Shown: positions 9,892 through 64,000, counted from the first letter of the stretch. The stretch is DNA of 64,000 nucleotides from Lingula anatina (GCA_051362555.1 CM120642.1:20770001-20834000), one strand, 5' to 3'. The notes: a model not told the origin generated them from the sequence alone. Made by a program: numbers and translations.

Positions 9892-12508
<2,617 letters not shown>

Positions 12509-14809: not shown

Positions 14810-16196
14810 GTCAGGAGGGGACTTATGACACAGTGTCTCTAATCAGTCTTCTCATTTGTCAGCGTTACACACAATTAATCAAGCTTAATGCGTCCGTTTG
14901 ACTTTAACACAGTCCTACATCAGCTTAGTGGACGCTTATTGGCCGCAGTGATCGATCTGTATTAATGAGTTATTTGGCATTTTAATAACCTACGTTGCCC
15001 GGCACATTGATTATTTCTTGAGAAATGTTTACTATGGACACATCTATAACTACGGTCAATATCACAATTGACAACTTTTGTATTCATACGTGATAAACAT
15101 ATCGACCTGATTTTAGTATAAGCAACACCACTCAGGTCCTACAAAAATAGCGTACACAAAAATTCCTCGTGGTCCAATTAATATACAAAGGGATTGGATT
15201 TTAAAAGTAACGGAGTCGATTTTATTTCGTATCAGCATTTAGCAATTGTTTTTAGATTGATGAACATTGTTGAATACTTTACCTAAAATATTTAAACTTC
15301 AGAAATGAAAAAGATAATTATATGCGAATAATCTACGGGATATTCCACCAAAAAAGTGAACATTTGAGTCAACGACAGAGGTGCATCCATTTTGTGTAAA
15401 ATTAGCATATAATTAAGTATTTTGCCGTGATTTTTAATTACCGTTGGATTATTTCCACATTTGAGGGTACTTTTGTATGAAACATAAAAAATAATGGATT
15501 CTGGGCAAAATTATGCAAATTTTATATAAAATGCGTAGGCTCATTTTTTTAGCGGGATGACCTCTGTAAAAATGAACGGGTGATTTGCAACAAATATTAC
15601 GTTCCAACAACTAGACCCTCTTCAATCGAAATAACTTTATTATTATGCTGCAATACTTAAGGCTTTTTGTCATTTGGGAATGTCAAATTAATGACTTGTC
15701 AAATCAGTGCGGGGAAGTTGACGTTGACGGCCGAAAGGAAAAGTAGACATTACGCTATCATAGTATTTTTTATGCAGTATTTCTCTCTGATAATTCATCA
15801 CTATGCATTTAACCGAATGATAGATTGTTGACGACGGGGTCGTTTCGCAAGCTTTTGACAAAAAGGTAAGTAGACCAATTCAATAGTGATATATGCAAAT
15901 GATTGTTCATTCATTGTAGTTTACATCTCACTTTAATGTCTATTTAACTCCATGGGTACCACATTATTAAGTGGTTCCTGGCTCATTTTTTATTAAATTT
16001 TACGTTATCAGGGTCATAAAAGATAAAAGATTCCGCTGTGGTAATTTAAGAACTGTTTTGCTGGATACGAGATTGTTCATCCTCGTAAACTGAATTTGTA
16101 GTGTAGGTAAAGATAGCGGAATGCAATAAATAACAAGTAGCCATGCATATGTTCATGTTGGAGAGTTTATCCTGTCTAAAATTTTGTATTCATAGT

Positions 16197-39982: not shown

Positions 39983-42647
39983 TCAAGCCTCCTCAAATAC
40001 GGAAATTAAAACGTTTTCAAAGTCTCCATTTTGAACAACTGATAAAATCTTCTCCAGCCACGTGTCTATTGCTGCCTGGCCGTGGTAAAATGGCACTCCC
40101 ACCGTGTGACGTATGTACCAGTACGCTCTCTGTGAACCTAAAGGGAAATAAACCTCATACTTAGTGTGCTCAAATCAGTCAGATCAGATATCTTAGTAAT
40201 AGGTAAAGCGGCCGAAGACTCGATTCTACAAATGTTTATTTAAGCAATTCGTTAAAACGACTTTATTCAAAGACAACATCTCAAGAGTAAGCGCTCAATG
40301 CACGCAGATTTTAAAATTTGCAAAAGAGCTCACCTTTTCCTAGGCATTCAGCAGTCCCTAGATGACCGTTACACGCATCAGACATCAGTGATTTCATAGC
40401 GCCACATATCTCACTGCGGATGTCTTCTTCTTTGTGACCATTTTTAGGAATTTTCTCAGCAAACCTAGCTGCAGATTCCTCTGGGTGGAACAGGAAATCA
40501 TACCATTTGTTTTCTTTGAGAAACGTGGCAAGGAATTCCTTATGGCGTTTTCCCATTTTGTATATTGAACCCAGCACCTACAAAAGAATAACATTGACCT
40601 TCAATCAAAAACAGTCATTTGTTTTGACATTCTGGATGTGTCTTTATTGTTATCAGCTAAATATATTCCCATTTTTGTTATTTGAAAAGCTGTTTGAAAT
40701 AAAACACGCTTAAATAGGATAATTATTCTATGGTAAATTCCTCAAGCAATGTTCAATATAACTTGCTATTGGCGTATTTCTAGTTTATATGGGAATTAAA
40801 CTGCGCAAAAATAAAACGAAAATTATATTATATTTATATTGATCTTTTATGACAATGTCAATGCTTACCACATTACGCAGATATCTCAGGTCCAAGGCCT
40901 GACACAGTAGACACATATGATTGGCTAACATCATCTGTAAAATCTCTAGCGCTTCTCGAGTAAGACGAGAACTGACGAGAGCCATGGAGTTGACAGATTG
41001 GTTCTGGCATTCAGCAGAGAGCACGTGGTTGGACATTGGATTGGCCAGGTGGTCTAACTCGGACATGTACGATGCCATGGCAATATCAGCTCCTTTGAAA
41101 CCAAAATCGAGATTGATGTCTGACCCGCAGAGATTTGGCGGGAGGTCGTGGTTAATACGATGGTTGACAACTTCTTGGAATTGTGCCAATAGAAGCTTCC
41201 CACAGACCTGCAACGCTTGACGAGTTTGATCTAATGTTATTGAAAGCGTTTCACCTTGGAAATTGCCTCCATGAGCAATGGTGTCGGTGCGGTGGTCGAT
41301 GACCGGGTTGTCATTGGCACAATTCAGTTCCACGTTTATTCGCCGACACGCCTCTTTGAGAGTCTCGATCACCGGGCCTAGCCATTGTGGGGCCGTCCTT
41401 ATGCTGTAACGGTCTTGCTTCAAAGACCCGTACGTATCAGGTAGATGCATCTCTAACGTCGAAACGGCGAGTTGACTTCCGTCCAATATTTTCAACATGT
41501 TGTTGGAAACTTCTTTCAAACCGACGTGCTGAAGGCAAGTATAGTGGACAGGATGGAAACTTTCTAATTTACCTTGTAGCGCTTCTACGGCCAGCCCTGT
41601 GCAAATCTGTGTTAGCAGGACAGCAATATTGGCTTCATAAATGGTTTGAGCGGCAGTCCCAGCAGCGAAAGAGGTGGCATTGATAATGGCGAGTCCTTCT
41701 TTTGGTCCCATCACCAATGGTTCTAGATTGGCTTCTTTAAGGGCAACAGGACATGGCATGATTTGACCTCTGACCATTACGTTGATATCTTCTCTTCCGA
41801 TCATGGCTGCTGCTATATAACCCAAAGGCATCAAGTCACCACTGGCGCTGACAGAACCACGCAGAGGAACGATAGGAACGATATCGTTGTTAATCATGGC
41901 TACCAGTAACTGTACCACGTCTGGCCGTACTCCTGAGTAAGCCTTAGCGAGACAATTGGCCCTTGTAACCATCACAGCGCGCACCATGTCTGGAGGAAAT
42001 GTTCGACCCATCCCGGCATTTATAAGTCTTATAAGCGCTTGCTGAAGTTTTTCAAATTCCCATGTCCGAGTGTCGGCGCTGTTACCGAACCCTGTGCTGA
42101 CGCCATATATAACCAGCCTCTCTTCGGTGATCTTCCTTCGGAGGTATTCGGCATTTAGAGCCATTTCAATGAGGGAATGGTCAGAAGTAGACAGCCTGAT
42201 GTGCGTATTTTTGCTGCACTCGTGTACCTGGAAATTTAGATTTCATAAAGCCCTTAGAAAAATATGCTTCAAAGAACTTGTTCAGTTGAAGCTAAATGTA
42301 TATTATAAAGGGAGCATAGATTGCACTAGTGTCCCACTAAAAGATCGAAACCATTGATACCGAATAGTCATAATATAGTCTTCAAATTGAAGAAAGCGCA
42401 TAACAATTTTTTGGCTCAGAAGTTCAAGAAATGTGGAGAGGTTTGTAAAATTATTTTAAGATGTAGAGAAACGTCCCAATCCATTACGTCTGTAAATATG
42501 AAGCTGATATCTGCAAAGAAAACTAATACGTACGTGTGCAATATTCAGTGAGTTCCCATCAACCTTGAAGGTTTCTTCATCTCTGATCAGCTTTCGTTCC
42601 TGCATTAACTGTAATGTGAGACTGAGATGAGTTTTGTCCTCAGCCAT
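39983..42647 (-). CDS. MIO-dependent aromatic amino-acid ammonia-lyase, copy A (PAL-type; ~623 aa), 4 coding exons
   Basis: Exons 42647-42534, 42227-40869, 40577-40334 and 40137-39983 (phases 0,0,1; GT-AG). Motifs YGVSTGFG, LIRLINAG, GSVSASGDL (MIO ASG 41838-41846), KEGLAIIN, KQDRYSIRTAPQWLGP, NDNP, HGGNFQG, GFKGADIAMASY, SAECQNQSVNS. Confidence 0.92.
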
Positions 42648-42959
42648 TTGATGATTTCTTCCGAATGAAGTGTGTCTCTTTTTTATTCTGAATTGCGCGT
42701 TTCTCTCTTAATTCTGAAATTAGAAAATGAAATAAAAGTGAAACACGCCATGCAATTATAAAATTACAAAGCTGCAAATAGAAAATATTTTTTGATTTTT
42801 TGGTAGCTCCCGATAACTTTGCCGCGTCTAACACTTAGCATATATACAACGTCGCCTCTATTCGGTATATCTGCACTAACCTACTTCCACTCCACTTACA
42901 ACATACGTAACGTGTCTTGTTACTTCGTGCTTCACTTTTTTGTTACTATTAGCAATCGG

Positions 42960-43070
42960 AGCCTTTATATAGGGTTCGTGCAGCATGGCAAGGTCACCTT
43001 CCACTTGTCAACAGTCGTTTTTTTTTCCGCAATCCAATCTAGAGAAATACGTCACCATGCGCCTATTTTT
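42960..43070 (-). promoter_or_regulatory. TATA-box promoter of lyase A, conserved with lyase B promoter (52250-52362)
   Basis: TATATAAA on the minus strand at 42964-42971 and 52253-52260. Shared upstream blocks TTCGTGCAGC, GGTCACC.TCCACTTGTCAACAGTC and ACGTCACC.TGCGCCTATTTT. Non-coding exon donors at ~42880 and ~52176. Confidence 0.6.
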
Positions 43071-43922
43071 TAAAAGTATTTATGTTTGTCTCAAATGTCA
43101 ATAGGCGTTGTTTGTGTGACGTCTTAAGCTAACATTAATTTAAATCAAGTCCACAACTTTAACTTAATTTATCCATTGAAATATTACTTTTGTATCGGGA
43201 TCAACTGTTGCATAACATTTTGCATAATCTATAGCTTTTGAAGAATAATATTTATAAATTGATTTAGATTCTTAGACAGCATTAATACGAATTTCTAATA
43301 AAATCTGATAAATGTATACCTTAAAGCTAACTTGACAATGTCATCCTTGGACATGAAATTAAACCGTAATACGAGATTTGTACCTTTTCGTTTCGAACTT
43401 GAACTTTGCTTGCTGTACCCGTTTATTACGACATGTTATTTTTCGTGGTTAAATCTGAGTACTTATCCCCAGTTATACTACCTTATTTAATTCTCGAACG
43501 GACCCGACAATGATTTTTCTTTATACACTGCTTGTCCTTGACTTCTACGCCGGACTGAGAATAAACAGCGACAAAACCAGGATCCAAACGCTTATATTTA
43601 CCACGCCGATGTTTATCAACAAGACATATGGGGGTTCAAATAGGTTCATGGCTCATTTGAACTCTCAGGGATAGTCTTTGAAGTCAAGAACTTCTAAAAA
43701 TGTGTCACCTTCACTCGCCAGGACGTGCACTTATCATCACGTAGCAGTACCGGTATGTGCTGGTTACCAGTACACTATAACCACGGAAGTATAAACTTCC
43801 ATGCACAGTCCCCATATCAAAAACACCCCACAGTAAGGGTCTGCTGGCCATATAACGGCAGATAACTGAAGCAATTTCACAGGAACGGATGTGGTGTTCA
43901 TATATATTTACCAGTTCAGTAA

Positions 43923-43990
43923 CAGGAGCGGATTAAGGATTACTTGAAGTGGGAGAGTGGGGTTTGTCCACGGATGCGAAGCCAACGCCG

Positions 43991-44026
<36 letters not shown>

Positions 44027-44224
44027 ATTGGCATGGGATTCGGGGGCGGCCGAAAAATTTTGTGATTTTAGAGGGCGAAAGGTGCCATTTAGTACGGTTT
44101 AGAACTATGAATCAGCTAGTCAAATTCTCATTTCAAGAGGGGACCATTGGTGTTTTTTTCTTTTTCAGAAATAGAAAGGGGGGGGGGGTCAGGACTCCCC
44201 TGACACCGCCTAAATCCGCCACTG
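43923..44224. mobile_element. MITE, CAG..CTG termini, 5-bp TSD AGTAA
   Basis: CAGGAGCGGATTAAGG...AAATCCGCCACTG flanked by AGTAA; homologous to 5402-5667. Confidence 0.75.
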
Positions 44225-44695
44225 AGTAACAATGAAAATATATGGAGAAAGGGTGGGTCCGTGGACGCGAAAACACATAGTTAGGCTTGCCTTTCATCTT
44301 GGTTCCTGCATATACCTAAACAGAAAAACACTACGCTTTCTCATCTTGATTATTCTAAGCCCGCACCTTTTTTCTAAGCTCTCTTCTCCCAGTTCCAGTG
44401 TTTATGTAAATATACCATAGGTGATGTTCTTAAAGACCTTATTACACATATTTACAACTGAGATCAGGATTATTTTCAATCAATATCCCATGATTATATT
44501 TCTTATATGTTTTGTTTACAACAATATAAGTAAACAGTAAAACAGGTTATGACCGTGCCGTCAAGTACCAAGGCACTGACTAACAGCATGGAAGTGAGCC
44601 TTAGTTCATCATCCTAGGCACTGAGTATTTTATCCGGTTGTCCCGTCTGTCAGTCATTTTTCTCCAATTTGAGCAAATACATGTATATATATATA

Positions 44696-45154
44696 CTCCC
44701 CTAGCAAAAAAAGTGTCACCCCTAACATAATGCGTAAAGTGATACACAACCAATGTTCCTCATTCAACTTTTAAAAGGAATTTTTCACAAAAATTTACGG
44801 ATTGTACAACCAATGAATAAACTGACGATTGTCAAAAATCAAAGCCACATCTCAGTATTTTGTACAGCATCTTCTGGATTAGAGGGCACCACTGTCGCGT
44901 CTGTGAGGGGAGTCAAAAAGTCCTGTAACGTTTGGGCATTGATCGCGTTCCACATACGGTGCAGAGTTTGATATCATTTATTTTTTACAGAGTTATCCCT
45001 CCGTTATCCATTCCCGAGGTTATTCCACACATTCTTAATGAGGTTCTGTTCTAGGGATTTTTTTTAGCTGGCCATTGGTGGGGCGTGTTTGTTTGGGCCT
45101 GGTTCGCATATACATGTATATCGGGTTCAGGTGACACTCTTTTTGCTAGGGTAG
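44696..45154. mobile_element. Tc1/mariner-type non-autonomous element, TA TSD
   Basis: TA|CTCCCCTAGCAAAAAAAGTGTCACC ... GGTGACACTCTTTTTGCTAGGGTAG|TA. Confidence 0.75.
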
Positions 45155-45866
45155 TATGTATTTTAAGCTGAACCTGATTCAGATGCAGAATGCGGGAGTA
45201 CTTTTCTAGATGGGCTACTAGTATTTCAACATGCAGAAGTGCAGGAAATCATGATAAACGAAAAAAGTGCAAAATTGTGTCTTTACGTATGGATGCATTT
45301 TTGACACAAATTTGCAAGGGTGGTAAGCCAGCAACAGGGCTTTTTTTGTTATGACTTCATAATCGAAATCATCCCCTCCCATTTTGTGACTTTTGATCAA
45401 CGCTGTCTATACATTTATTTTAACTAAATTTGATTACGATCTGTATTCGTTCAAATAAAGATGAGGAATTGTCTGTAATGGTTTTATTACATATATAGTT
45501 TTAATTTTCTGAATGGCTAAAAATCTTGTTTATGCTAGGGATTCATTATATACAGAAAATGGAATGATTGTATTAGGTGTGAAGTTTGGTTGCGACGATT
45601 GCCCAAAACTGAATTTTCATATGTGCTTGCTTTAATATTCCAGCCACTTAATTCATATTGTTCCTCTTTCTCGTTGATCTCAGGGTCAAATGCTTAAAAG
45701 TGGAGTCAGCACGTTTTTATCATTTACCAGATTTTCCTTCATATATAATTTGCTACATGTATAATGTTCATTATAAATGACATGTAAATTATCATACAGT
45801 ACCGTATGAACGACACGCTCAACCGTTCTTCTTCTTCTGTTTTATTGAAAAAAATATATGATATAT

Positions 45867-46190
45867 CAGGGGTGGATCCAGGATTATTTGAAGGGGGTGG
45901 GGTCCGGTTTTTCAGGAATGACAAGCCTCGGATGCGAAGCCGACCCTCGCCCCCTCCTCCACCCCCCTTGACGTGGGGTTCAGGACCCGTTGAAGAGTAC
46001 TGGAAAATTTTGGTATTTTAGAGGGCGAACGGTGCCATTTGCTAGAACTACATGTATGATAAAGCTAGAACTATGGTTAAGCTAGTCGAAATTCTAATAT
46101 CAAGAGAGGAGCATTTGTGTGATTTATTTTTCAGAAACCGAAAGGGGGGGGGGGGGGTAGGACACCTACCTCCCCCTTAACCCGCCACTG
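45867..46190. mobile_element. MITE of the same family as 5402 and 43923
   Basis: CAGGGGTGGATCCAGGATTATTTGAAGG...TTAACCCGCCACTG with shared interior. Confidence 0.7.
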
Positions 46191-47221
46191 CTTAGACTGA
46201 GAGTTTTGCCTGTGCTGCGATCTCGGCCTCATTGTGACGGCTAGCACAAAATTCATGCGTTGTACTGGTTGTGCTTAAGCACGGCAGGAAAGGTCTCAAA
46301 AAGTGTTAACTTTCGACCAGTTTGCGCTCCCACACAAAAAAAAAACCCAGCCCGTCCCCTCCTGTGTTGACGCGAAAAAAAAAGTGGGTTGGGGGCTTTT
46401 AAAACACCATTCATTTTATAGCCTTGTACTAAAAATCCGTTGCCTTGGGCAGCCGTATGTGTGTGAGGAGGGGGGCTTCCCCCAATATATTTTGAATTAA
46501 GCCACTGATGTTGTGATTTTGTCATGTAAACCAAATATTGGTCTTCAAAATGGAAGATAGACTGCCTTGTATCAATAAAATTAACAAACCTAGGCTGGAC
46601 TAGTCTCTATAGTAGACAGCGAATGGACTATTGCTCTCTACAAAAATTGCTCCGTTCATGAGAAGACGCGTTACTGTCTACCATTAAAAACCCAGTTCAA
46701 TATAAAATAGAACGACTTTTTATATCAACCCTGTGTCAATTTTTGATTCCCCATCGAGTAAATTCTGAATCATTCTTACGTATATAGAGATTAAAATAGA
46801 TTAAAATAAATGAAGAGAGAGAGAGGTTGAACAATAAGAACGGAACTATTATATACGGCATTTCGGTACTGAGTTTACTTGTGAATGGAAATCAGGGCTT
46901 TAAGCTTACTTTTACTTAAAAGTAACCTAAAAGTTAGCTCAGTATCCGTGGGTATTTCTAAGGGCAAATTCGGGACAAAGGAGGCCAAGATATGAAGTGG
47001 CCTCGTACCCGTTTCCTCTGTTTACACCCCTTTGACTTTTCTGCTGACAAACCGACTTTTCTCGTCCTGAACTCAAAACTATGGAAGATTTTTACCTAAT
47101 CCGTCTCTTTAGTTGTGTTATTGAAAATGTATACAAATACCGTGTCCATATAAAAGTATTATAAAATAAATGAAATAGTTGTTATTGCATACAGATATCA
47201 CACCTTGTAATGTATATTATA

Positions 47222-48882
47222 CAGACTTGACATTTAATATGGAATATTTTTTCCAAATCATTTTTCATCAGTTTTTTCCCTATTTTACTGACTGATAAAT
47301 GAAAATAAGGATTAAAATCGTGTTCTAATAACTTTTAATTATCTCTTTGATGTCATTGTGACATCAGTTCGTTAATGGAATTAGCCAGAGAAGCAAACAA
47401 AAACACATTGCCTTTTCTACGTCATACGGCAACCATTAAATGAGATATTTTAGATCTCCATATTTTCCAAATTATTGTCTGTAAAAGAGTTACACGCTCC
47501 ACAAATGACCCTCATGTCAGTGTCTAGTCACAGTAACAGTCGCTGTTACGCCTGACCTCTTCTGGCTGCTACCAGCGCTCTCAAGCGGCAAGGCATTCCT
47601 TGGGATATGTTTTTAGAGTTCAATCTGGAATAACATTCCAGGCATCGGTCGAAATCTGTCCAATTTGGCCCAGTTTTGTTGTAGGACATGTAGGCCATTC
47701 ATTTGGCGAGTAATGGCCTACCCACATATTGTCTACGTGGTTCAAATATGGCGGTTTTGATGACCAAGGTAGCTGTTCATTCCCTTGGTTCTCTAAGTAA
47801 TCTGTTATTAAAAGTGCTCTGTGTGAACCGGCAATCCCACCCTACAACCTAAAATTGTTCTTAAGGTGCCCCCTATCAAATGATAGTCAAGTGGTTCCCA
47901 GATTATTCCTTTATTTAATCTGGTTCAGGTTTTCGTCGATGACTGCCATTGGTGTTTTGGCACCAATGTGGTATCCACTTCAAATACTGACGCTGTTAAT
48001 GACCTAAGTCACTTTAGAGGCGGCACACACTTCGTCGTTGGCCTCTTCTGGATGTCTGTAAACTCTGTTTTGACTAGTTGAGCGGTACAGGTTAAATCTG
48101 ACCTCAATAAAGAAAGCCACGAGGTTTCAGTGTTCAACCCAGAAACGGTCATGGTCCCTAATTCATTAGAGAAACATACAACGATGTTTTGCTGTTTACA
48201 GTGGGTTCCTCGGAGGTCGTCTGGTATGCTAACCTGCAAAAACCAGTTTGGTGTTCGCTAAGGGCCTTGAAAAATGCGTTTTGGTGGCAATTTACCCCCC
48301 ATTCTGAACGGACTGGGTGGTTTTTGTTTAGTTGCAACGGCATATCCTGAAAGACAGTGGGTCCTGTACTCTGGTGGTAAGATTTTAATACATTGGGTGT
48401 GGCCTCTATGTAGGTACATCAGGCTGGGCATTATTCTATAAAACTGTGCGGACCGTTTCGTTTGGCGCAATTAACTGACTGGCAATGTCTGTCTTTTTCG
48501 CGCCATTTTGCCACAGATTAACAAACTTGCAAAGCACTGCATAGCTCATTTTACACACTGCAAAACCGACCACTTGCATGCAAAATTTCAAATTCTTCTA
48601 TGCAGTAGTTGCCGACATATGGATACTTTTTTGACAGAACCGTGCTTTGCCAAAGCCAAGCCTTGACCTGCCCAAAGGAGCACTACCCAATTAAATTACA
48701 TCATATTACATAATGCAGCAGCGTAACAAACCTGATATTCAGTTAATTGGAAGCGACACACCTGACTACACACTTCTCCATTCACATATCTTATATGAGA
48801 TATTAGTTTTTTGAAAAAAGAACGCATTTCTACCTAGGCACACCTTCGAAACTGAAATATTCCATATTAAATGTCAAGTCTG
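47222..48882 (-). mobile_element. Full-length but decayed Tc1-like transposon (1.66 kb)
   Basis: Perfect 28-bp TIRs CAGACTTGACATTTAATATGGAATATTT with TA TSD. Minus-strand remnants HRALLITDYLENQGNEQLPWSSKPPYLNHVDNMW and GMPCRLRALVAARRG. The empty site is visible in the paralogous flank at ~39499. Confidence 0.9.
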
Positions 48883-49226
48883 TATGATGAATTACTGGCC
48901 TCACTTAAAAACTGACTTAATGCAACATGTCCCATTTCTAATGGAAATATAACATAAATAATAACCTGCAAAAAATTAATTATGGTGTAGAGGTATAACG
49001 TAATCTAAAGAGCCACAATATACCCGTTCTAAATAAAATTTTAAATGCGTAATTAAAACATACTTCCAATTTCCTACTCAAGCGCATGCTTTTCGGAAAG
49101 AGAATCCCTGTCATATATATTTAGTGGAGATCATATAAATATATATATTCCGAAAAATAACATACAAAATAAGTGCAATGAATTACAAAATAAATGCATA
49201 TTAATGTTCATTGCATAATTTGAAAA

Positions 49227-49890
49227 TCAAGCCTCCTCAAATACGGAAATTAAAACGTTTTCAAAGGCTCCATTTTGAACAACTGATAAAATCTTCTCCA
49301 GCCACGTATCAATTGCTGCCTGGCCGTGGTAAAATGGCACTCCCACCGTGTGACGTATGTACCAGTACGCTCTCTGTGAACCTAAAATAAAATAAACTAC
49401 AACTTAACTGTGATCAAATCATTCAGATCAGATACAGGCTAGGTATCTTAGTAATAGGTAAAGCGGCCGAAGACTCGATTCTATTAATTTTTATTTAAGC
49501 AATTCGTTAAAACGTCTTTATTTGAAGACAACGTCTCAAGATCAAACGCTCAATATACGCCAATTTCAAAAATTGCAATATAAAACAGCTCACCTTTTCC
49601 TAGGCAGTCAGCAGTCCCTAAATGACCGTTACACGCATCAGACATCAGTGATTTCATAGCGCCACATATTTCACTGCGGATGTCTTCTTCTTTGTGACCA
49701 TTTTTAGGAATTTTCTCAGCAAACCTAGCTGCAGATTCCTCTGGGTTGAAAAGGAAATCATACCATTTGTTTTCTTTGAGAAAAGAGGCAAGGAATTCCT
49801 TATGGGGTTTCCCCATTTTGTCAATTGTCATCAGTACCTAAAAAAGATAAAAATGAGTTTCAGCTCAAATTGATACAATTTTTATTTTGT

Positions 49891-49929
<39 letters not shown>

Positions 49930-51928
49930 TTTGCAGCCAGGAAGTGTCTGTTTTGAAACTAAATGTATTCGCAATGTTGTAATTAGAGTGCGATTTGAAT
50001 AAAATATGGAAGGAATAATTATTCTACTATATTGCTTAAACAATAATTTATATAACTTGCTATTGTATTTCAAGTTTGGATAGAAAAATTTTTCTAAATA
50101 AAATTTCGCAAAAAAAAAAAAGAAAATAATAACAATATATGTATTCATGCTAACCTTATTACGCAGATATCTCAGGTCCAAGGCCTGACATAGTAAACAC
50201 AAATGATTGGCTAGCATCATCTGTAATATCTCCAGCGCTTCTCGAGTAAGACGAGAACTGACGAGAGCCATGGAGTTGACAGATTGGTTCTGGCATTCAG
50301 CAGAGAGCACGTGGTTGGACATTGGGTTGGCCAGGTGATCTAACTCTGACATGTACGATGCCATGGCAGTATCAGCTCCTTTGAAACCAAAATCGAGATT
50401 GATGTCTGATCCGCAGAGATTTGGCGGAAGGTCGTGGTTAATGCGATGGTTGACAATTTCTTGGAATTGTGCCAAAAGGAGCTTTCCACAGACTTGCAAC
50501 GCTTGACGAGTTTGATCTAATGTTATTGAAAGCGTTTCTCCTTGGAAATTGCCTCCATGAGCAATAGTGTCGGTGCGGTGGTCGATGACTGGGTTGTCAT
50601 TGGCACAATTCAGTTCCACGTTTATTCGTCGACAGGCCTCTTTGAGAGTCTCGATCACCGGGCCTAACCATTGTGGGGCCGTCCTTATGCTGTAACGGTC
50701 TTGCTTCAAAGACCCGTATGTATCAGGTAGATGCATCTCTAACGTCGAGACGGCGAGTTGACTTCCGTCCAATATTTTCAACATGTTGTTAGAAACTTCT
50801 TTCAAACCGACGTGCTGAAGGCAAGTATGGTGGACTGGATGGAAACTTTCCAATTTACCTTGTAGTGCTTCTACGGCCAGCCCTGTGCAAATCTGTGTTA
50901 GAAGGACAGCAATGTTGGCTTCATAAATGGTTTGAGCGGCGGTACCAGCAGCGAAAGAGGTGGCATTGATAATGGCGAGTCCTTCTTTTGGTCCCATCAC
51001 CAATGGTTCTAGATTGGCTTCTTTAAGGGCAACGGGACATGGCATGATTTGACCTCTAACCATTACGTTGATATCTTCTCTTCCGATCATGGCTGCTGCT
51101 ATATAACCCAAAGGCATCAAGTCACCACTGGCGCTGACAGATCCACGCAGAGGAACGATAGGAACGATATCGTTATTAATCATGGCTACCAGTAACTGTA
51201 CCACGTCTGGACGTACTCCTGAGTAAGCCTTAGCGAGACAATTGGCCCTTGTGACCATCACTGCGCGCACCATGTCTGGAGGAAAGGTTCGACCCATCCC
51301 GGCATTGATGTGTTGTATCAAAGCTTTCTGCAACTTTTCTAACTCCAGAGTGCGGGTATCAGCGCTGTTTCCAAACCCTGTGTTGATACCGTATATAACC
51401 AACCTATCTTCGGTCACTTTCTTTCGAAGATACTCGGCATTTTGAGCCATTTCATTCAGGGAATGGTCAGAAATGGACAGCTTGATGTGCGTATTTTTGC
51501 TGCTCTCATGTACCTGTAAAGAGAGGTGATCGTCATAAGGTCCCAAGAATAATATCTCTCAAAATTATTGCATTTGAGACTCAATGTGAACATTAAAAAT
51601 AGATGGATTTACATTAAAAAGCAAAAGTACACGCACGCACGCACGCACTCACACACACAGTTTCAAGGTTGAATATTCTCAATTCTGGAAATGCCACAGA
51701 TCAATATGTTAGAAATGACGAGCTGTTTCATTATGTGGATAAAAGTGCCAATTCAATATACACAGGGCAGGTTAATATCTAGCTGATAACTGCAAAGAAA
51801 ACTAATGTACGTACGTGTGCAATATTCAGCCCTTTCCCGTCAACTGTGAAGGTTTCTTCATCTCTGATCAGCTTTCGCTCCTGCATTAACTGTAATGTGA
51901 GACTGAGATGAGTTTTGTCCTCACCCAT
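49227..51928 (-). CDS. MIO-dependent aromatic amino-acid ammonia-lyase, copy B (TAL/PTAL-type His switch; ~623 aa)
   Basis: Exons 51928-51815, 51513-50155, 49837-49594 and 49381-49227, with the same lengths as copy A. LIQHINAG, ASG at 51124-51132, KGADTAMASY. Confidence 0.92.
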
Positions 51929-52423
51929 TTTGATATTTTCTTCCGTATGGCGTGTGCTTCTTATTTTTTTCTGTATTGCTTGTGTTTCTTTCTTTATTCT
52001 GAAATAGGAAAATGAAAGAAAAGTTAGACACACCATGTCATTTCCAACTACAGTAAACTAAGCAACTGCAGTATCTGCAAAAAGAAAATATTAAAAGCAA
52101 AAAATTCACCGCGTTGACTCTGCTATGTGTAATTATGTAGCATATTGTAGCCTCTATTCGGTATATCTGTACTTACCTGTTTCCACTCACAGTACGTTAC
52201 GTGTCGTGTTACCTCGTGTTTCACTTTTTTGTAACTGTTAATAATCAGAGCTTTTATATAGTGTTCGTGCAGCCTCGCCAGGTCACCATCCACTTGTCAA
52301 CAGTCATTTATTTTCGAAATGCGTCACACGGGTAGCGTCCTAACGTCACCCTGCGCCTATTTTGGTGAAACTTAGCCCTATTAGCCAGAGATGTCAACAG
52401 GTTGTTTGTCGGCATAAACAAGT

Positions 52424-52580
52424 CAGGGGCGGATTTAGGCCGTCTTCTGGGTTTTCCGGAAGACGGTCAGATTTTCAAGTTTAATTCTAATTTTTCTGTC
52501 GGAAGACGGTCAAAAGTGGAGGATGGATCAATAAAGATAATTCGGAAGCCTGTCAGAAAATATCTCTGGATCCGCCCCTG
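52424..52580. mobile_element. MITE inserted in lyase B upstream region
   Basis: CAGGGGCGGAT...ATCCGCCCCTG with CAAGT/CAAGC flanks. It is absent at the homologous site upstream of copy A (~43146). Confidence 0.8.
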
Positions 52581-55500
52581 CAAGCACATAACTTAAGCTA
52601 ATTTTATCCACTGAAATATTACTTTAATATCCGGACGAGCTCTCGCATGACAATTTTGAGCTTTTGAAGAGTGACATATCTAAATTGGTTTAAATTCTTA
52701 AATAGCATTTACATTGGAAAAAATCTACTAAATGTATACTTTTTGATAACTTGAAGCAGTTTACATTGATATTAACCTCGAAATTAAACCGTAAGCTAAC
52801 CATTATATACCTGTCCGTTATGAATCAGGACTTTATTCGCTAGGCGCATATATTACTATTATTTTCCGTCGTATGAATCTAGGTATGGAAGTTTTGGAAG
52901 GAAAGCTTTGGTAGGAAAGTTTTATTGTGCACAGCTTGTCATCGGGTATTATGCTAAAATATCGGGACTGTGAATATACAAAATTATTTTTTCCTGATGT
53001 ACACGTAGAATGGGGACATACCTCTTTTGAACATTAAAGGATAGTCTTTGATGTCAAGAACTACAAAAAATGTCACATTCGCCCACACCCCCAGTAACGA
53101 TCTCCACGACGTATAACGACAGAGATCTAGACCTTTTACGATTTCACTGGAACGGCTAGAATTTCCGTATGTTCAGTAAGAATGAAAATAAATATACAGT
53201 AGAGAAGATGGATCCATCGAAAGGAATTGGAATATACCGGTACAGATTTGCTTGCCTCCACCTTTTCTTCTTGCTTCCTAAATAGGCCTGTATAAAAACC
53301 GAAAACACATTCTGTGCCCCCACTTCCGGATAATTCTACCTCCACTCCTCTCCTCCCCCAGTCATCAGTCATTTATTATGTGAGTATAGGTGAAGTTCGC
53401 AAAGAGCAAGTACACATATTTACAAAGAATTGTTTTTTATTAAGCACCATCCCCTGATTACATTTGTTTACACTAAGAGACGTAAAAAACACGCCGTTTA
53501 TCCAGTATCAGGGCATTTAAGAGTCTCTACGTTCCTTTTTGGGGTAAGTGTTGTTATTTGTCGACCTGGTTTTGAGTCATTATGAAGTCATTTTGAGTCA
53601 TTATGTAGAGGGCAGTTTTGGCAGGACAAATCAGTCGCAGTCTCCTTCAAAACTTCACTAAGGAGAAGCACTTACTGCTGATGTGGACGTACTGTAACTG
53701 TAAATGCGACTTTTGTACGGCTTAAACCTTATTTTAAATTGAAAGTAAATGAAGGAAAATTCTCTTGTGATGAATCAAAAATAAAACAAACGTATTTTAA
53801 GCGTATTTATTATTTAATTTTTCTTACCTTATTCAGATGAACTAGTGGAAACGAGCTCTTATAGAAATAACAATTAAAAGATATGAATCTGCGAAAATAA
53901 CTCACAGGCCCTGTGTCAAAAGAAACTAAGTAATATTAACAGTAGGATGTCCTTTGGAAAAAGGTGCTAGGACTATATTGCAGGAAATGTGTTTCTAAGT
54001 ACGAAATTGGTAAAATTCAAGAAATATTCGCACATGCATAGAAGTTTTGAACTTTCAAAGGAAAGCTCCATACCTTCCTCTGTTAGGCAGTCTTTGCATT
54101 TTTAAAATCTGAAAAGACGTCAAACATAAGGGATGGAACTTCCCTGTGGCACCGCCGAATAAAATACACATAACCGCAGTTTTTCAAACTTATTTTTAAC
54201 TAACCTCAATAACAATAATAAAAACTGCGATGACTTATATATTTTTCCACAGCTGCAAATAATGCCCTTGAAATGTGAGTGTGACGCACGGATTCAGCTT
54301 TCAAATTGTACTAGGGCATTGGTCAAATATGAATATAAAAGCATAAACACCAAATACCAGTACAATCTAATGGAAAACAAAAGGCATATCTAATAATGGT
54401 TTACAAAAATCGTATTCGCTTTGCCAGAATTCTGCTAACCTGATTTTATTCAAATCCCCACAATGGAGGGTGAAAGGTGAAGAACATTGGGCTGTAGAAT
54501 TTTAGACCCGCACATTTATGATTTATTGAAGACTTATCATGAGTTATGTATGGCATTTATTCTGCGTTAAAAATATATTTTTATCTGAAGAGGTCGTGTC
54601 CCTCCACCACAACAGGCACATTAATTATTCTGTCAAAAAATTGTTACCAAATACTAGTATGACCGCTGTAAAATATTGTACCGTGCAACGGCGAGCCTAA
54701 CACGGAGGAATTTTACTATACTAGGGGAGTTGGTGGATCGACATAAATCCAATCAAATCATCATTGGCTGTATATTAAAACAAACGACATCTGTGTGCAC
54801 AAGTCACAGTCTACCTCAAACTCATACGAGTGTCTCGAAAACTTCTAGATTTATTTCTGGATACCTGCTACTTGGTCTCAGCATTTACAGTAAATTACTG
54901 TAACCCTGGTTGGTTACTTATTTTTATGAGAGCGACGGCTTGGAATCACACAACAACTTCAGATGTGGTTCATGACGATTTTATTCCTCATACACGGTCT
55001 ACAGTCTGGCACGCAGGCAGGGTCTGTCTCGTCGATCTCCCGGGGTCTCTCTCTCACTAACTGAGAAGCCATCATTTTATAGGGAATCGTTCTAAGTCCT
55101 GCGTGCCCAATAACTATTACTAAATGTGTGTAATTTATAGGAATAATAAAGGAACTAAAGGTAACATACGTGATTAATAGGAAGTATGAGAAAACTAAAT
55201 ACAGGGACTATATTACATTCCATAGTAGCCCTGAACACGGATATGTTCTCCGGGTAGGAAGGTTACATAACGCTCGGACCTGGGAATGGCCTCAACTGAA
55301 ATTTCCCCAGGTGTAGTGACTGTTTTTGGTGGAAGAGATCAAAAGAGCGAAATGACTATAATGAGGCCAAAGTATTTCTACAATTTTAGAGTCGGCACCG
55401 GGTTTCCATTTTCTGTCATCTGAAAGGGGTGTATCTTCAATTACTTAAATAAATTACTCTACTGAGATTTTTGTTTCTAATTTTACATACAGAGGGGCAT

Positions 55501-57497
55501 TCTAAGTTGGCATGATGAATAACAATAAAATGGTAGATGATTACGAAAAGATAACAAAGATTCTAAGCTTATGTGATGTATGATGTGTCAAAATATTTCT
55601 TGAGATTTTAGAGAAGCACTGATACATCACAAAGGGGGTAAGGTAATATTGGACGTGACAAATTACAGTGTGCCTGAGTATAAATGTAACCTAAGAACTT
55701 GAATGCCATTTATTTTATGTTAACAAACTTTATACACTCCATATATTTTTGAAACCCAGAGAAGTTACAAATCTACTGTTACAAACAAAATGCCACTATA
55801 TGTAGCTCTACTGGCAAATATTTTATTATTTGAATATGCTATGAGGAGATGCTCCAAATGTGCTCCTTTCTGCTAAAGACACTCTTCTTTTCTACGGGCG
55901 AAGTTGTCGATGACTTTGATGTACTTTTCCTTTGAAATAGCTCCGATTTCTTGAGTGATTGCTGCTCTGGGATGTTCCTGTAGATTCAATCCGTCAGAAT
56001 AAAATTTGGAGGTTGAGGACGGGGAGTGGGGGGGGGGGGATTCTTAATAAATTATTCATGGGCATGGACTTGGGTTCAGGAGCTAAAAGGTGCAAAAAGG
56101 GTTTAGACGGGGTATCGGCAAGATGAGGATACCCTTCATACAGCAAAAGTTTCTCTGGAGTGGCTGGACCAGAAGTTTCTTAACCGACTCATCAACTGTA
56201 AACAGGAACCTGAGTGGTCTCCGCATTCATCGACCTCACCTCCACCCCCAAGGGACGCGTTGTTTGTTTCCGTATATTTACTAATTTCTCTAGTTTTTAG
56301 AAATACGTGGGCTGTATATAGTCTGTAAACAGCAAATAAATGCTGATCACGTTCTTGGGTTACATTTGTTCTTGGACAATCGGTGAGATTATGCAGTGAG
56401 AGACCATAGCCAGTTACAGAGGACATAATCTAAATTAACATCAAATTATATTCTAGTAAGGCTTGACATGAAAAGTAAATCATGTATATTTAATCATGTT
56501 AGCGTGTCTTTTTCTTTTATTGAATTTCAACATGCAACTGGAGTATATTTATTTACATAAGATCGTAAAATGATAACTATAATAATGTAATGATCATGAC
56601 ACCTGTCCCTACTAGCCGTTAAATTAAAAGTTGAAGGAAGATGTTCTGTTAAATGTATTTTCTTGTTCTACATCTGTAACCATGACCAGAATCCGGCTAT
56701 TCCTAAGGGGTGTGGGGCACAATGTTAATTTTTTCCCTATCTTCTTGTTGGGAATTACAAAGTTGTTTTAACATGAGGATAATGATGTTGTAAGGGCACA
56801 ATGAAGAAAAAGTGCTTGGTTTTATCTCGCTTTGGTGCTTATACTGTTTTTTTTTGGGGGGGGGGGACAGGGGTGAAGGCTATTTTTAAAGGTGAGGGAG
56901 GGGGCATTGCTCGAGCTTGAACCGTAAAAAAACACTTAACTCTGTGGTGGGCTTGGCCAGTAGGTCACATGTATCACGCACTTTCGCGATTTTCAATTCT
57001 TGCATTGTCTCATGCCTGCCTATTACGAAACGTTATAGATTGTTTAAAAGCATACCAGTCATTTTCCGATTTGGTAGCAAGGTTGCAAAATTGATTTTTG
57101 CTGTTTTGATATACATGTATTATTTTAACCCAGTGATGCGAATTTGAGGACCGTCCCAATATTTGCAATTTTTTCATGATCTCTTCTTAGCTGTTGGACG
57201 TCAATTGGTGAATCTGAGAGAAAACAGAGGCTTGGTTTTGCAGTCCGTATACTAATTTATTTAAAATTATAAGTCACGCGGGGTCAATGCCACGCACTTC
57301 ATTCTCAGCGAGTTTCAGTACATATTTGATATTTCCCCTCACTTTATTCACTGTGTATATGCACGTGCATAGGTGTGTGTGTGTGTGTGTTAATTCAGCA
57401 ATAAGATAACGTCAGAATGATACGTCAACAAAATAATACATAAGGTCCAGTCAACATGGTCAAGATAGATAGGCCTCTGTATTCAATTAATATCAGT

Positions 57498-57615
57498 CAC
57501 GTGCACTGACCATATATAATGAAGGTGCGCAGCCCACGAAGGACACAAATGCATTCAAACAAGAAGACTGAACCAGAAGCGAAATAATCCGGAGTGTGCT
57601 AAAACTGAGGTGAGT
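57498..57615 (+). promoter_or_regulatory. Putative promoter and non-coding first exon of lyase C
   Basis: CACGTG at 57498, TATATAA at 57513-57519, donor GAG|GTGAGT at 57610 and acceptor TTTTTCAG at 57846 ahead of the ATG. Confidence 0.5.
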
Positions 57616-57896
57616 GAAGCTAAAACAAGTCTGTTAAAAGGTAACAGTCGACCCCGCGTGTGCTTAATGAAAGAGAAATAAGATAGGAAGAGAAATGAAA
57701 TACGTTTTAGATACTTAAAGTAATGCCAGATCTTAGTAAAAACCGTTGTTGACCATGAATGGTACTTCTCGTAAGTCTGTTCTCTCTCCCTCTCATGTCC
57801 CTGGCCCGCAAACGCTCACACTCAATGATCATTTTGTCCTTTTCAGCAGTAAGGATCAGCAGTATATAATAGTGCTCTGACACTCCTGAAAACATA

Positions 57897-60527
57897 ATGA
57901 TGTCGGACGACACAACTCATATCAGACTCACAGTGGAATTAATGCAGAAGAGAAAATTGCTCAAGAACGCTGAAAAAGTTACTATAGACGGCAGTTGCCT
58001 CAACCTCGCACAAGTAAATTATTTACCGTATGATTTCAGCAGTTTATTAAATACTATAAATAGCTTATAAAATGTAAATTGTATCAAAAAATGTCTTCGA
58101 ATGTCTGTAATGCTTAAAATCTTAAAAGCTTTTATTTTCCAAGTCGTAAGTGATACAAGTATATGTATTAGGATCAAATTACGAACACCCCTGTGTACAT
58201 TATATCTTTAAATATTTTATTGTTAAATAATCGCCATTTTGGATAATATGGAGAATTTTGTTACGGACAGGTGGTTGAATGCAGTAATAGCACAAACATA
58301 AAGTTGGAAATCTCTGAACAGGCCGTAGATGAAATGGCGTTGAACGCTAAATATCTTAAAAGGAAAATCACAGAGGAAAAGCTCGTCATATACGGTATAA
58401 ATACAGGGTTTGGAAACAGCGCTGATACCCGCACTCTGGAGTTAGAAAAGTTGCAGAAAGCTTTGATACAACACATCAATGCCGGGATGGGTCGAACCTT
58501 TCCTCCAGACATGGTGCGCGCAGTGATGGTCACAAGGGCCAATTGTCTCGCTAAGGCTTACTCAGGAGTACGACCAGACGTGGTACAGTTACTGGTAGCC
58601 ATGATTAATAACGATATCGTTCCTATCGTTCCTCTGCGTGGTTCTGTCAGCGCCAGTGGTGACTTGATGCCTTTGGGTTATATAGCAGCAGCCATGATCG
58701 GAAGAGAAGATATCAACGTAATGGTCAGAGGTCAAATCATGCCATGTCCTGTTGCTCTTAAAGAAGCCAATCTAGAACCATTGGTGATGGGACCAAAAGA
58801 AGGACTCGCCATTATCAATGCCACCTCCTTCGCTGCTGGTACCGCCGCTCAAACCATTTATGAAGCCAACATTGCTGTCCTTCTAACACAGATTTGCACA
58901 GGGCTGGCCGTAGAAGCACTACAAGGTAAAATGGAAAGTTTCCATCCAGTCCACCATGCTTGCCTTCAGCACGTCGGTTTGAAAGAAGTTTCCAACAACA
59001 TGTTAAAAATATTGGACGGAAGTCGACTCGCCGTTTCGACGTTAGAGATGCATCTACCTGATACGTACGGGTCTTTGAAACAAGACCGCTACAGCATAAG
59101 GACGGCCCCACAATGGCTAGGCCCGGTGATCGAGACTCTCAAAGAGGCCTGTCGACGAATAAACGTGGAACTGAATTGTGCCAATGACAACCCGGTCATC
59201 GACCACCGCACCGACACCATTGCTCATGGAGGCAATTTTCAAGGAGAAACGCTTTCAATAACATTAGATCAAACTCGCCAAGCACTGCAGGTCTGTGGGA
59301 AGCTTCTATTGGCACAATTGCAAGAAATCGTCAACCATCGCATTAACCACGACCTTCCGCCAAATCTCTGCGGATCAGACGTCAATCTCGATTTTGGTTT
59401 CAAAGGAGCTGATACTGCCATGGCATCGTACATGTCAGAGTTAGATCACCTGGCCAATCCAATGTCCAACCACGTGCTCTCTGCTGAATGCCAGAATCAA
59501 TCTGTCAACTCCATGGCTCTCGTCAGTTCTCGTCTTACTCGAGAAGCGCTGGAGATATTACAGATGATGCTAGCGAATCATTTGTGTTTACTGTGTCAGG
59601 CCTTGGACCTGAGATATCTGCGTAATGAGGTAAGCATTTACCACATACTGAACACGTGTTGTTTAAAAAACATTATTTCGCGAAAGATAGCATCCCAGTC
59701 GCGCTAGAAAAAAATACTGGAATGTATGGCAAGTTGTTTTTATCATCATATAAACAAACTGAAGTAAAAGAACGTGTTACATTTAAAATCGCTTCTCCAG
59801 TTACATAAATGTGAATTCATGTTCGATAACAAGATAGACACATCCAGAATATCAAAACAATCTAAATGAAAAAGAAAATCGGAACTATTCTGCATTGAAA
59901 GCGAATGTTATCTTTTTAGGTAATAAGTTCAATGCGCAAAATGGGGAAACGCCAAAAGGAATTCCTTGCCACGTTCCTTAAAGAAAACAAATGGTATGAT
60001 TTCCTGTTCCACCCAGAGGAATCTGCAGCTAAGTTTGCGGAGAAAATTCCTAAAAATGGTCACAAAGAAGAAGACATCCGAAATGAGATATGTGTCGCTA
60101 TGAAATCACTGATGTCTGATGCGTGTAATGGTCATTTAGGGACTGTTGATTGTCTAGGAACAGGTAGGCTGCTTTTATTTTATTTTATTTTGATAATTGA
60201 ACATTTTAAAATTAAGACCGTTATGAGGAATAATTATGGTTAAAGGAAGTCCTGACAAAAATCATAATTCAAAATTAAGTTGAAGTGCTTACTACTGCTT
60301 ACGACTTTAAATCTTTAAAGGATCAAATTATTAGTTATTTCAGCACACTTAAAATAGACTTTTTTCGTATAGGAACGAAGAAGGCGTACTGGTACATACG
60401 TCACACGGTGGGAGTGCCATTTTACCACGGCCAGGCAGCAATTGACACGTGGCTGGAGAAGATTTTATCAGCTGTTCAAAATGGAGACTTTGAAAACGTT
60501 TTATTATCTGCCTTTGAAGAGCCTTGA
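57897..60527 (+). CDS. MIO-dependent aromatic amino-acid ammonia-lyase, copy C (TAL/PTAL-type His switch; ~624 aa)
   Basis: Exons 57897-58013, 58271-59629, 59920-60163 and 60373-60527, with the same intron positions as A and B. LIQHINAG, ASG at 58652-58660, KGADTAMASY. Confidence 0.92.
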
Positions 60528-62910: not shown

Positions 62911-62992
62911 GAATTGTACGAGAAATTAATATAGGAGATCCAATCATCTCAGTTTTCGGAAAAGATATGACTAGATTGCAAATGAAAGCACC

Positions 62993-63157
62993 ATGGCAGA
63001 AGCGAAGAGGATCCAGCTGACTGCTGTAGGCCCAGTTCAGTCGAAAAATAAGGAAAAGAAGGAAATCCCAACGCTTCGATTTAACTTGACCCTCACGAAA
63101 AGCACTTCAAAGACCTGCCCGGAGTTCTCATACACCGAACTTACTCGTAATATATTG
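62993..63157 (+). CDS. UBN1: Ubinuclein/yemanuclein first coding exon (gene continues beyond window)
   Basis: MAEAKRIQLT...LRFNLTL...KTCPEFSYTEL matches the ubinuclein N-terminus (MSEPHRVQFT..VRITLTL..RCPEFFYPEL). Donor TTG|GTAAGT at 63158. Confidence 0.85.
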
Positions 63158-64000
63158 GTAAGTTATAAAAACTGCATAATTTCGTCCATCAAGTCTCCTT
63201 CTACAGCCAGTATTTAATGAAAATCGTTTTGAAAACAAACTAAAGCAGTTTGTGGACTATGTTTGTAGGGGGTATCCCTCACGTGGGAAGGGGTGGGGGC
63301 CTTCAGAAATTGTGAATAAAAATGATCACATCCTTTGTCAGTCGTGCAAATGGCGGCTAGACGATAGTATGTGTGTACCCTTATGCTGTTAAATAGCCTG
63401 ACCGGGAGCGACGCCATTTTAGTATTTTTCCTTGCATATTTTCTAGGTGTCTGAATTCATCCGTGTTTTTATATGGAAAACTAGACCGTAAGCGGAGTTC
63501 ACTCCTGATAAAAACTATAGGGCATCACAAAAATCGAACATTAGTGGAATCTTATGATTTAGATCAGTGTTTGGTTGGTGGAAAGAAAGCACATATGTCA
63601 GAAGCTATCAATAATGCGACCGATTAATGAGCCGCCATGTTGCCTGTGGAGTTTACCTAGACAAGGGGTCGAAATTGCACAGCGCATTGCGCGTATATAT
63701 TTTTTTGCAAATATTGCTTTAATGTTGTTTTGTCGTGACAAGATTCTAATTCTGAGCATTTCTCACTGGATAACAAGGAAAACATTTTTCCGATGAAAAT
63801 TACTTTTCATGCAATATTATCACGGCTGTGTTTTTGGTTCACCGGCTTAGAGCAAAGACGATATCTAGAAAGACGTATATAGTGCTCAGACCGACTGTGG
63901 TAATTTTGTATGGATTTTCAGGAATACTTGTAAGTAATTCATAACATTTTGACTAGGAAATAAAAATACACAAATCTTTACAGGATAGCATTATGCTAAT

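Follow-up and report, generated by a model that had tools for sequence, protein, structure and literature searches.

Three intron-bearing genes of the phenylalanine/tyrosine ammonia-lyase branch in the brachiopod Lingula anatina and their predicted substrate types

Phenylalanine and tyrosine ammonia-lyases (PAL and TAL) are stated to be absent from animals in a 2026 preprint (bioRxiv 10.64898/2026.09.15.751672) and in a 2024 paper (PMC11373271), and a further source (PMC9002059) contains no mention of invertebrates, molluscs, Mytilus, or Lingula. Here we analyse a window of 64,000 nt of Lingula anatina DNA (GCA_051362555.1 CM120642.1:20770001-20834000; all coordinates are window positions), which holds three genes, A, B, and C, of this enzyme family. 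By sequence comparison, they are real host genes of the PAL/TAL branch, and this family assignment is well supported. With plant PAL (parsley PAL1, PDB 1w27/6f6t), their proteins have in common the Ala-Ser-Gly triad of the 4-methylideneimidazole-5-one (MIO) cofactor, the catalytic Tyr, the Gln-x-Arg-Tyr and Asn-Phe-Gln-Gly motifs, Lys416, Glu444, and Gln448. They differ from it in having ~35 per cent identity over the fold to parsley PAL1, Leu (gene A) or His (genes B and C) where parsley has Phe at the substrate switch, Thr as the second pocket residue in B and C, a shorter shielding region, and an animal host. His is also found at the switch of the grass phenylalanine/tyrosine ammonia-lyase (PTAL), Rhodosporidium PAL (1y2m), and Rhodobacter TAL (2o6y), whereas B and C lie on a separate tree branch and combine His with Thr420, where most fungal His sequences have Ile or Val. 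No paper on the animal PAL/TAL clade described below is among the literature matches listed, from a search with subscription journals and supplements outside its coverage. This is a known enzyme type that has been annotated automatically but is apparently undescribed in animals; it forms an old branch of its own, in which the shielding region is shorter and a switch of two pocket residues recurs.

The original prediction, made from the sequence of the window alone, claimed three intact four-exon genes for MIO enzymes with PAL/TAL signatures (KQDRY.IRT.PQWLGP, HGGNFQG, D(F/Y)GFKGA..AMASY, and SAE..NQ.VNS), and both claims hold. A six-frame motif scan of the window recovered each motif three times, once on the plus strand and twice on the minus strand. 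Exon models anchored on these motifs give three genes of four exons, each with 1872 coding nt (623 amino acids), no internal stop codon, and introns of 196-317 nt, all nine of which have GT-AG boundaries. The span 39983..60527 is bounded exactly by the stop codons of genes A and C. The three proteins are 89-95 per cent identical in pairwise comparisons, dN/dS among the copies is 0.12-0.22 by a rough count, and the coding GC content is ~46 per cent, compared to 31-43 per cent in 2-kb bins of the window. The exons, in the order of transcription within each gene, are the following.

42534..42647, minus strand: gene A exon 1 (Leu-type, predicted PAL); model, with the intron 1 joint 42223/42530 read in RNA
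40869..42227, minus strand: gene A exon 2, catalytic core with Tyr79, Leu106 (codon 42026-42024), the ASG/MIO triad, and Ile420; model
40334..40577, minus strand: gene A exon 3, short shielding-domain region; model, matching RefSeq P0122/P0003
39983..40137, minus strand: gene A exon 4, ending at the stop codon; model
51815..51928, minus strand: gene B exon 1 (His-type, predicted TAL/PTAL); model, with the intron 1 joint 51509/51811 in RNA
50155..51513, minus strand: gene B exon 2, catalytic core with His106 (codon 51312-51310) and Thr420, a mosaic; model and copy comparison
49594..49837, minus strand: gene B exon 3; model, with a joint skipping 317 nt in RNA runs X4 and X7
49227..49381, minus strand: gene B exon 4, preceded by the 212-nt phase-1 intron that also occurs at bivalve-type and annelid loci; model and RNA joint
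57900..58013, plus strand: gene C exon 1 (His-type, predicted TAL/PTAL); model, matching RefSeq P0121/P0002
58271..59629, plus strand: gene C exon 2, catalytic core with His106 (codon 58472-58474) and Thr420; model
59920..60163, plus strand: gene C exon 3; model
60373..60527, plus strand: gene C exon 4, ending at the stop codon; model

Exon 2 of gene C retrieves L. anatina RefSeq proteins named 'phenylalanine ammonia-lyase 2-like' at 95-100 per cent identity, and the trio is also annotated on a second RefSeq scaffold (XP_013393772/3, 775, 780). The guess that automated PAL labels already exist was therefore right for these very genes, which RefSeq calls 'phenylalanine ammonia-lyase 2(-like)' and which have bivalve and annelid orthologs. 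On the TIGR01226 PAL profile, the RefSeq Lingula proteins P0121, P0122, and P0001 score 531, 524.6, and 529.6 bits, all above the cut-off of 519.15; three further clade members score 501.6-561.6 bits, one of them above the cut-off. On the HutH profile TIGR01225, in contrast, the RefSeq Lingula proteins reach 302-316 bits and miss the cut-off of 539.15 by >200 bits. All three window proteins have the MIO triad and the catalytic Tyr, Asn, Gln, Tyr, and Arg, and 90-93 of 93 clade sequences retain these residues. Gln448 is found in 91 of the 93 (the other two have gaps), compared to Glu in 11 of 11 HutH sequences, and Glu444 is kept in 91 of the 93 and in A, B, and C. The window proteins are 46-68 per cent identical to other clade members, 49 per cent to the best outsider (a fungal PAL), and 27-32 per cent to HutH sequences.

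To place the proteins phylogenetically, 294 candidates were reduced to 250 with a near-complete core (44 fragments were dropped), 97 of which make up the clade of the Lingula proteins, and a tree of 83 chosen sequences was reconstructed in IQ-TREE (quick mode, LG+G4), with group labels assigned from named members after a first tree. A brachiopod-bivalve-annelid clade is recovered with a support of 100 in the Shimodaira-Hasegawa-like approximate likelihood ratio test (SH-aLRT), within a plant/fungal-type group that also has an SH-aLRT support of 100. A constraint that joined the clade with six HAL-type (bacterial HutH) sequences was rejected (approximately unbiased [AU] test; P-value = 1e-58). 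That the genes are diverged histidases acting on histidine is very improbable, even though no member of the family besides HAL has been documented in animals (bioRxiv 10.64898/2026.09.15.751672; PMC11373271; PMC2657906) and the HALs in our tree comparison were microbial, with none from animals. HAL belongs to the same superfamily and has the MIO triad and a similar fold, but the Lingula copies lack the Ser-His switch, Ser444, and Glu448 of the microbial HAL sequences compared: their switch residue is His or Leu, compared to Ser in 11 of 11 HutH sequences, and positions 444 and 448 are Glu and Gln, compared to Ser and Glu in the same 11. The claim that the genes belong to the PAL/TAL branch rather than to the histidases is thus borne out, and the phylogeny that the original prediction had proposed as a check separates the clade from microbial HutH.

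The second alternative, raised together with the lyase function from the start, is aminomutase activity in at least some of the copies, perhaps in all three, with beta-phenylalanine or beta-tyrosine as the product and peptides or defence compounds as its destination. An AlphaFold model (pLDDT 94, pTM 0.94) matches Taxus phenylalanine aminomutase (PAM; PDB 2yii; Z 45.8, root-mean-square deviation 2.5 over 602 residues) and parsley PAL (Z 45.4) equally well, with ~600 residues aligned, and HAL with Z ~38 over ~498 residues. Lyases and mutases have the same catalytic residues, and some annelid members of the clade are automatically labelled 'aminomutase'. Sequence comparisons lean the other way. 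The best solved relative in a sequence search is parsley PAL (E 2e-107; Pseudomonas putida HAL, E 9e-57), parsley PAL exceeds Taxus PAM by sequence score (363 versus 353 bits), and the Lingula proteins do not reach the cut-offs of the aminomutase profiles TIGR04473, TIGR04475, and TIGR03832 (354-362 against 1250 for TIGR04473 and, with exon 2 alone, 247-249 against 501 for TIGR03832). The switch residue of the Taxus enzyme is Cys. To our knowledge, sequence cannot reliably separate a lyase from a mutase, and we regard aminomutase activity as unlikely, yet clearly more credible than histidase activity.

The same model bears on the shielding region. The alignment covers ~500-520 residues for bacterial enzymes and ~600 for plant ones, and the core motif is followed by ~137-146 residues in Lingula-type proteins, compared to ~190 in plants and 80 in a cyanobacterial-type sequence. 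Judging from the model, the C-terminal shielding insertion of eukaryotic PALs is present but shorter in Lingula-type proteins.

The three copies are not equivalent, which goes beyond the original prediction: the sequences make one of them Leu-type and two His-type. The switch residue is His in (P)TAL, Ser in HAL, and Phe in PAL, and among characterized enzymes it is His that allows tyrosine to be used (bioRxiv 10.64898/2026.09.15.751672; PMC9002059). Residue 106 of the Lingula proteins aligns with the Phe of the 'RFL' of parsley PAL, and the pocket residues F144, I469, and E493 of Arabidopsis PAL1 (bioRxiv 10.64898/2026.09.15.751672) were equated through the motifs with residues 106, 420, and 444. 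Gene A has Leu106 and Ile420, whereas genes B and C have His106 (codon CAC in both) and Thr420. His is the residue of TAL and PTAL (EC 4.3.1.23/25); Leu is non-polar, yet it is not the canonical Phe of strict PAL (EC 4.3.1.24).

A, B, and C vary at 17 positions between codons 76 and 491, and residues 106 and 420 account for two of these. At four-fold degenerate sites, A and C differ in 17 of 24 positions in codons 1-107 and in 23 of 183 in codons 108-490. On these counts, A and C are old paralogs, and we read the levelling of their core as probable gene conversion that ends one codon past residue 106. The Ile/Thr420 difference persists as a single base within the levelled core. Gene B is mosaic, resembling A up to codon 78 and C from codon 79 on, and a 170-base stretch of it that spans the switch matches C without a difference. 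Two pocket types are held apart despite the levelling, and the split at residues 106 and 420 may have been kept under selection.

Across the clade, 91 sequences have both sites (RefSeq duplicates and two gapped sequences were excluded): 32 have His and Thr, 18 only His, 4 only Thr, and 37 lack both. When the two columns are excluded from tree building, the tree still requires at least 26 changes between His and non-His. Independent pairs agree in direction 9.2 times versus 1.2 (median P-value 0.02, range 0.012-0.109), and outside the clade, among 110 non-animal sequences, Thr accompanies 6 of 63 His and 0 of 47 non-His residues. His and non-His copies occur together in Lingula, Mytilus trossulus, Paralvinella, Lamellibrachia, and Owenia. 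We rejected an ancient division into a His and a Leu subfamily, as residues near the switch track lineage, with 83 per cent identity between types within a lineage; across lineages, the surroundings of the switch are 62-63 per cent alike for His-His, other-other, and mixed pairs. Because neighbouring residues track lineage and not type, the switches appear to be lineage-local, with the caveat of gene conversion. Repeated changes between His and Leu with a Thr or Ile partner would make the clade a natural experiment on substrate choice.

Seven of nine RNA runs from the same species were mapped to the window (X3 and X6 were not included); their tissue labels are coded, and the animals differ from the window by ~5 per cent, with most reads 90-99 per cent alike. 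All three introns of gene B are spliced in X4 and X7, intron 1 (301 nt) in 18 and 105 reads, respectively. Intron 1 of gene A (306 nt) is spliced in 92 reads of X7; introns 2 and 3 of A lie outside the mapped stretch. At the switch codon, Leu-type depth is 0, 100, 127, and 87 in X5, X7, X8, and X9, and the Leu codon of gene A, at a depth of 87-127 in X7, X8, and X9, has no alternative letter listed. His-type reads (74, 63, 24, and 190 in X5, X7, X8, and X9) end at this codon, and their loose remainder matches the B/C segment; the His-type share at a base diagnostic of B/C is 93/93, 71/145, 28/150, and 217/307 in the same runs. The proportions of Leu- and His-type transcripts vary by sample. 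X7 also contains joints 40867/59927, 49384/60145, and 49592/60387, in which the end of an A or B exon is followed by the succeeding exon of C. They suggest either a conversion mosaic that varies from one individual to another or a placement of reads on the wrong copy.

Contamination, an assembly artefact, or dead duplicates could be suspected from copies that are near-identical in their core and partly inverted. This explanation deserves hardly any weight, given spliced reads in independent animals, the low dN/dS values, the same trio on the second RefSeq scaffold, orthologs in ten bivalve and seven annelid named species, an intron shared with other carriers (see below), and the lack of a close prokaryotic relative. 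On the last point, a scan of GTDB, by a method that detects close relatives only, gave 23 pattern matches and no relatives, and plasmid matches are at most 35.6 per cent identical among the 30 listed of 977. The earlier judgement that contamination is unlikely stands on these grounds.

The reading that we favour, with a probability of about 65 per cent, is that the three genes encode host MIO-dependent aromatic amino acid ammonia-lyases. The proteins would make their MIO cofactor themselves and act as tetramers, as characterized family members do, and would likely deaminate aromatic amino acids. Copy A, with Leu106 and Ile420, is predicted to convert phenylalanine to cinnamate; copies B and C, with His106 and Thr420, are predicted to convert tyrosine, perhaps also phenylalanine, the tyrosine product being p-coumarate. 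The acids might then be shortened to phenolics of the benzoate/4-hydroxybenzoate type and might serve a tissue-limited purpose, such as chemical defence or the tanning of cuticle or shell. A tissue-limited job is favoured over housekeeping because runs X1 and X2 are nearly without signal. Plants take such a shortening route from cinnamate and coumarate to the coenzyme Q ring (PMC9483114), and the same two acids precede defensive benzoates (PMC2657906).

A number of points weigh against this reading. The switch rule was derived from plant and bacterial enzymes, and it is not absolute, since it took untargeted metabolomics to find the unexpected substrate of Arabidopsis PAL3 (bioRxiv 10.64898/2026.09.15.751672). 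Gene A has Leu instead of Phe at the switch. We know of no characterized enzyme that combines His and Thr. The co-variation of residues 106 and 420 is modest, as P-values extend to 0.109, 18 of 50 His sequences lack Thr, and conversion could inflate the count of 26 changes. The top fold match of the model is the Taxus aminomutase, albeit tied with parsley PAL, and the tree contains no animal HAL. Neither a 4-coumarate-CoA ligase (4CL) nor cinnamate 4-hydroxylase (C4H) is among the open reading frames (ORFs) examined, in a search limited to the window. In two of the seven runs, X1 and X2, exon-bin depth is at most 0.7. As for expression, another check proposed at the outset, A and B are spliced and transcribed, but a GT-AG joint specific to C is not among the joints listed, and reads on C may be cross-mapped from B. 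With coded tissues and ~5 per cent divergence, differences in ratio between samples may stem partly from population and not from tissue alone.

The pairing of His with Thr also admits ammonia-lyases that act on ring-modified tyrosines (L-DOPA, bromo- or chloro-tyrosine) and yield caffeate or halo-coumarates, with the smaller, polar Thr420 opening the pocket beside His106. Thr pairs with His both inside and outside the clade, and DOPA and halogenated phenols are abundant in bivalves and annelids. A literature search on the bromophenol link returned no paper that ties DOPA or halogenated phenols to a lyase among the matches listed. In plant PAL3, changes from Ile to smaller residues alter the ring pocket (bioRxiv 10.64898/2026.09.15.751672). 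On the other side, Glu444, the loss of which is the key change in carboxy-tyrosine lyase, is retained throughout nearly all of the clade as counted above, and a bromine-dependent role across the clade is countered by the carriers Helobdella and Dreissena, which are freshwater animals. Activity on modified tyrosines is thus improbable, though slightly less so than aminomutase activity.

If the favoured ammonia-lyase reading is extended, the clade would represent an undescribed entry into phenylpropanoid chemistry since the common ancestor of its carriers, in which PAL and TAL copies re-evolved by the same two residues and cinnamate and coumarate feed the animals' own phenolics, such as phenols for defence, halogenated phenols, tanning agents, or the coenzyme Q ring. 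We hold this extension tentatively, at slightly worse than even odds. UV screening, which had been suggested as a role, is unlikely as a general one because Ridgeia, Paralvinella, and Lamellibrachia, which are vent and seep worms, carry the family. If the enzymes are active, phenolic acids in carrier animals need not derive from diet or symbionts; the family is also one in use for biocatalysis and for the treatment of phenylketonuria.

Among the best 120 matches, the named animal sequences are from Lingula, ten bivalve species, and six annelid species; Paralvinella, found as a cluster member, brings the named annelids to seven. The label 'animal clade' rests on these named members, all of which are brachiopod, bivalve, or annelid, as most sequences are unnamed. 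The clade, which is old, intron-bearing, and expressed, thus spans three animal phyla and includes farmed mussels, clams, pearl oysters, and model annelids. When the last 130 residues served as the query, the three Lingula clusters were the sole clade members among 54 candidates, and this search is too insensitive to extend the taxon range; a search with a bacterial HutH fragment for long HAL proteins gave none named as animal among the 120 sequences listed, and an Atlas search gave generic PAL clusters only.

The clade and the plant-like, fungus-like, and protist/bacterial-fusion PALs radiate as four branches with no supported order among them, and the clade thereby brings a fourth branch into the discussion of PAL acquisition by plants and fungi. 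The grouping of animals with fungi in the best tree has a support of only 13, and the AU test did not reject a sister relationship between the clade and the six sequences of the bacterial ligase-PAL fusion branch (P-value = 0.25). The third Lingula intron (phase 1) has the same codon position and the same phase in three metagenome loci, L006, L007, and L008; the proteins of the first two group with Mya/Dreissena, and that of L008 is 99 per cent identical to a Paralvinella protein. Introns 1 and 2 of Lingula are missing from these three loci. In the other three of the six loci scanned (L009, L014, and L031), the third-intron joint was not found, and L010 reads through without this intron, which may reflect a transcript or intron loss. 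An exactly shared intron argues for a single, old origin before the three phyla split, and the sequences point to the presence of the family in the common ancestor of brachiopods, bivalves, and annelids. Early gene transfer and descent from an older eukaryotic ancestor both remain candidates for its origin. Of the proposed acquisition, the presence of the family as host genes holds, but acquisition by one genome does not, since the clade spans three phyla with a shared intron.

PALs with a fused AMP-binding (4CL-like) domain and protist PALs (from an Omnitrophota metagenome-assembled genome [MAG], Spironema, and Papus) belong to the same eukaryote-type PAL group, although the animal proteins, unlike the bacterial fusions, carry no fused ligase domain. 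In P0254, P0257, P0258, P0259, and P0341, an AMP-binding (CoA-ligase-like) domain is fused to a plant/fungal-type PAL, and P0254, from a Candidatus Omnitrophota MAG, has two lyase domains; such fusions are possibly a one-protein route from Phe or Tyr to a CoA ester. Plant/fungal-type PALs also occur in Spironema, Papus, and chytrid fungi (P0118, P0302, P0275, P0307), which widens the eukaryotic range of the family and bears on whether PAL predates the proposed plant-fungus transfer.

The genes had been placed between ZCCHC10 and ubinuclein. A ZCCHC10-type zinc knuckle is indeed present at ~11133-11285, ~28 kb from gene A (Pfam zf-CCHC_3, E 4e-17), whereas the ORF at 62990-63211 that had been called ubinuclein has no Pfam match, which leaves that name unconfirmed. 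Between the zinc knuckle and gene A are a HEPN-domain ORF and repeated VWA genes; with the zinc knuckle, these upstream genes identify the region as animal DNA. The ORF, 244 codons at 14108-14842 on the minus strand, has a DZIP3/hRUL138-like HEPN domain (E 1e-17), a fold common in invertebrate immune-type proteins. The VWA genes, at 17500-37700, are three diverged tandem copies, 75-80 per cent alike, of a gene whose product combines a VWA domain with a Ser/Thr-rich stalk and probably a membrane anchor. A tandem array of ~10 units of 146 bp, 87-95 per cent alike, occupies 1620-3064. One further feature lies next to gene B.

47216..48888, no strand: insertion outside the coding genes, with 34-nt terminal inverted repeats (97 per cent complementary), in the 3' flank of gene B

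This insertion, which is likely a non-autonomous DNA transposon, is missing from the matching flank of gene A. It is polymorphic, as reads of X4 and X7 bypass it (joint 47219/48883). Its interior is also covered by RNA, at a depth of ~50-110 in X7, probably from copies elsewhere. Upstream of gene B, a short interspersed repeat at 52423-52580 has high RNA depth and many loose read ends in all four runs with joint data.

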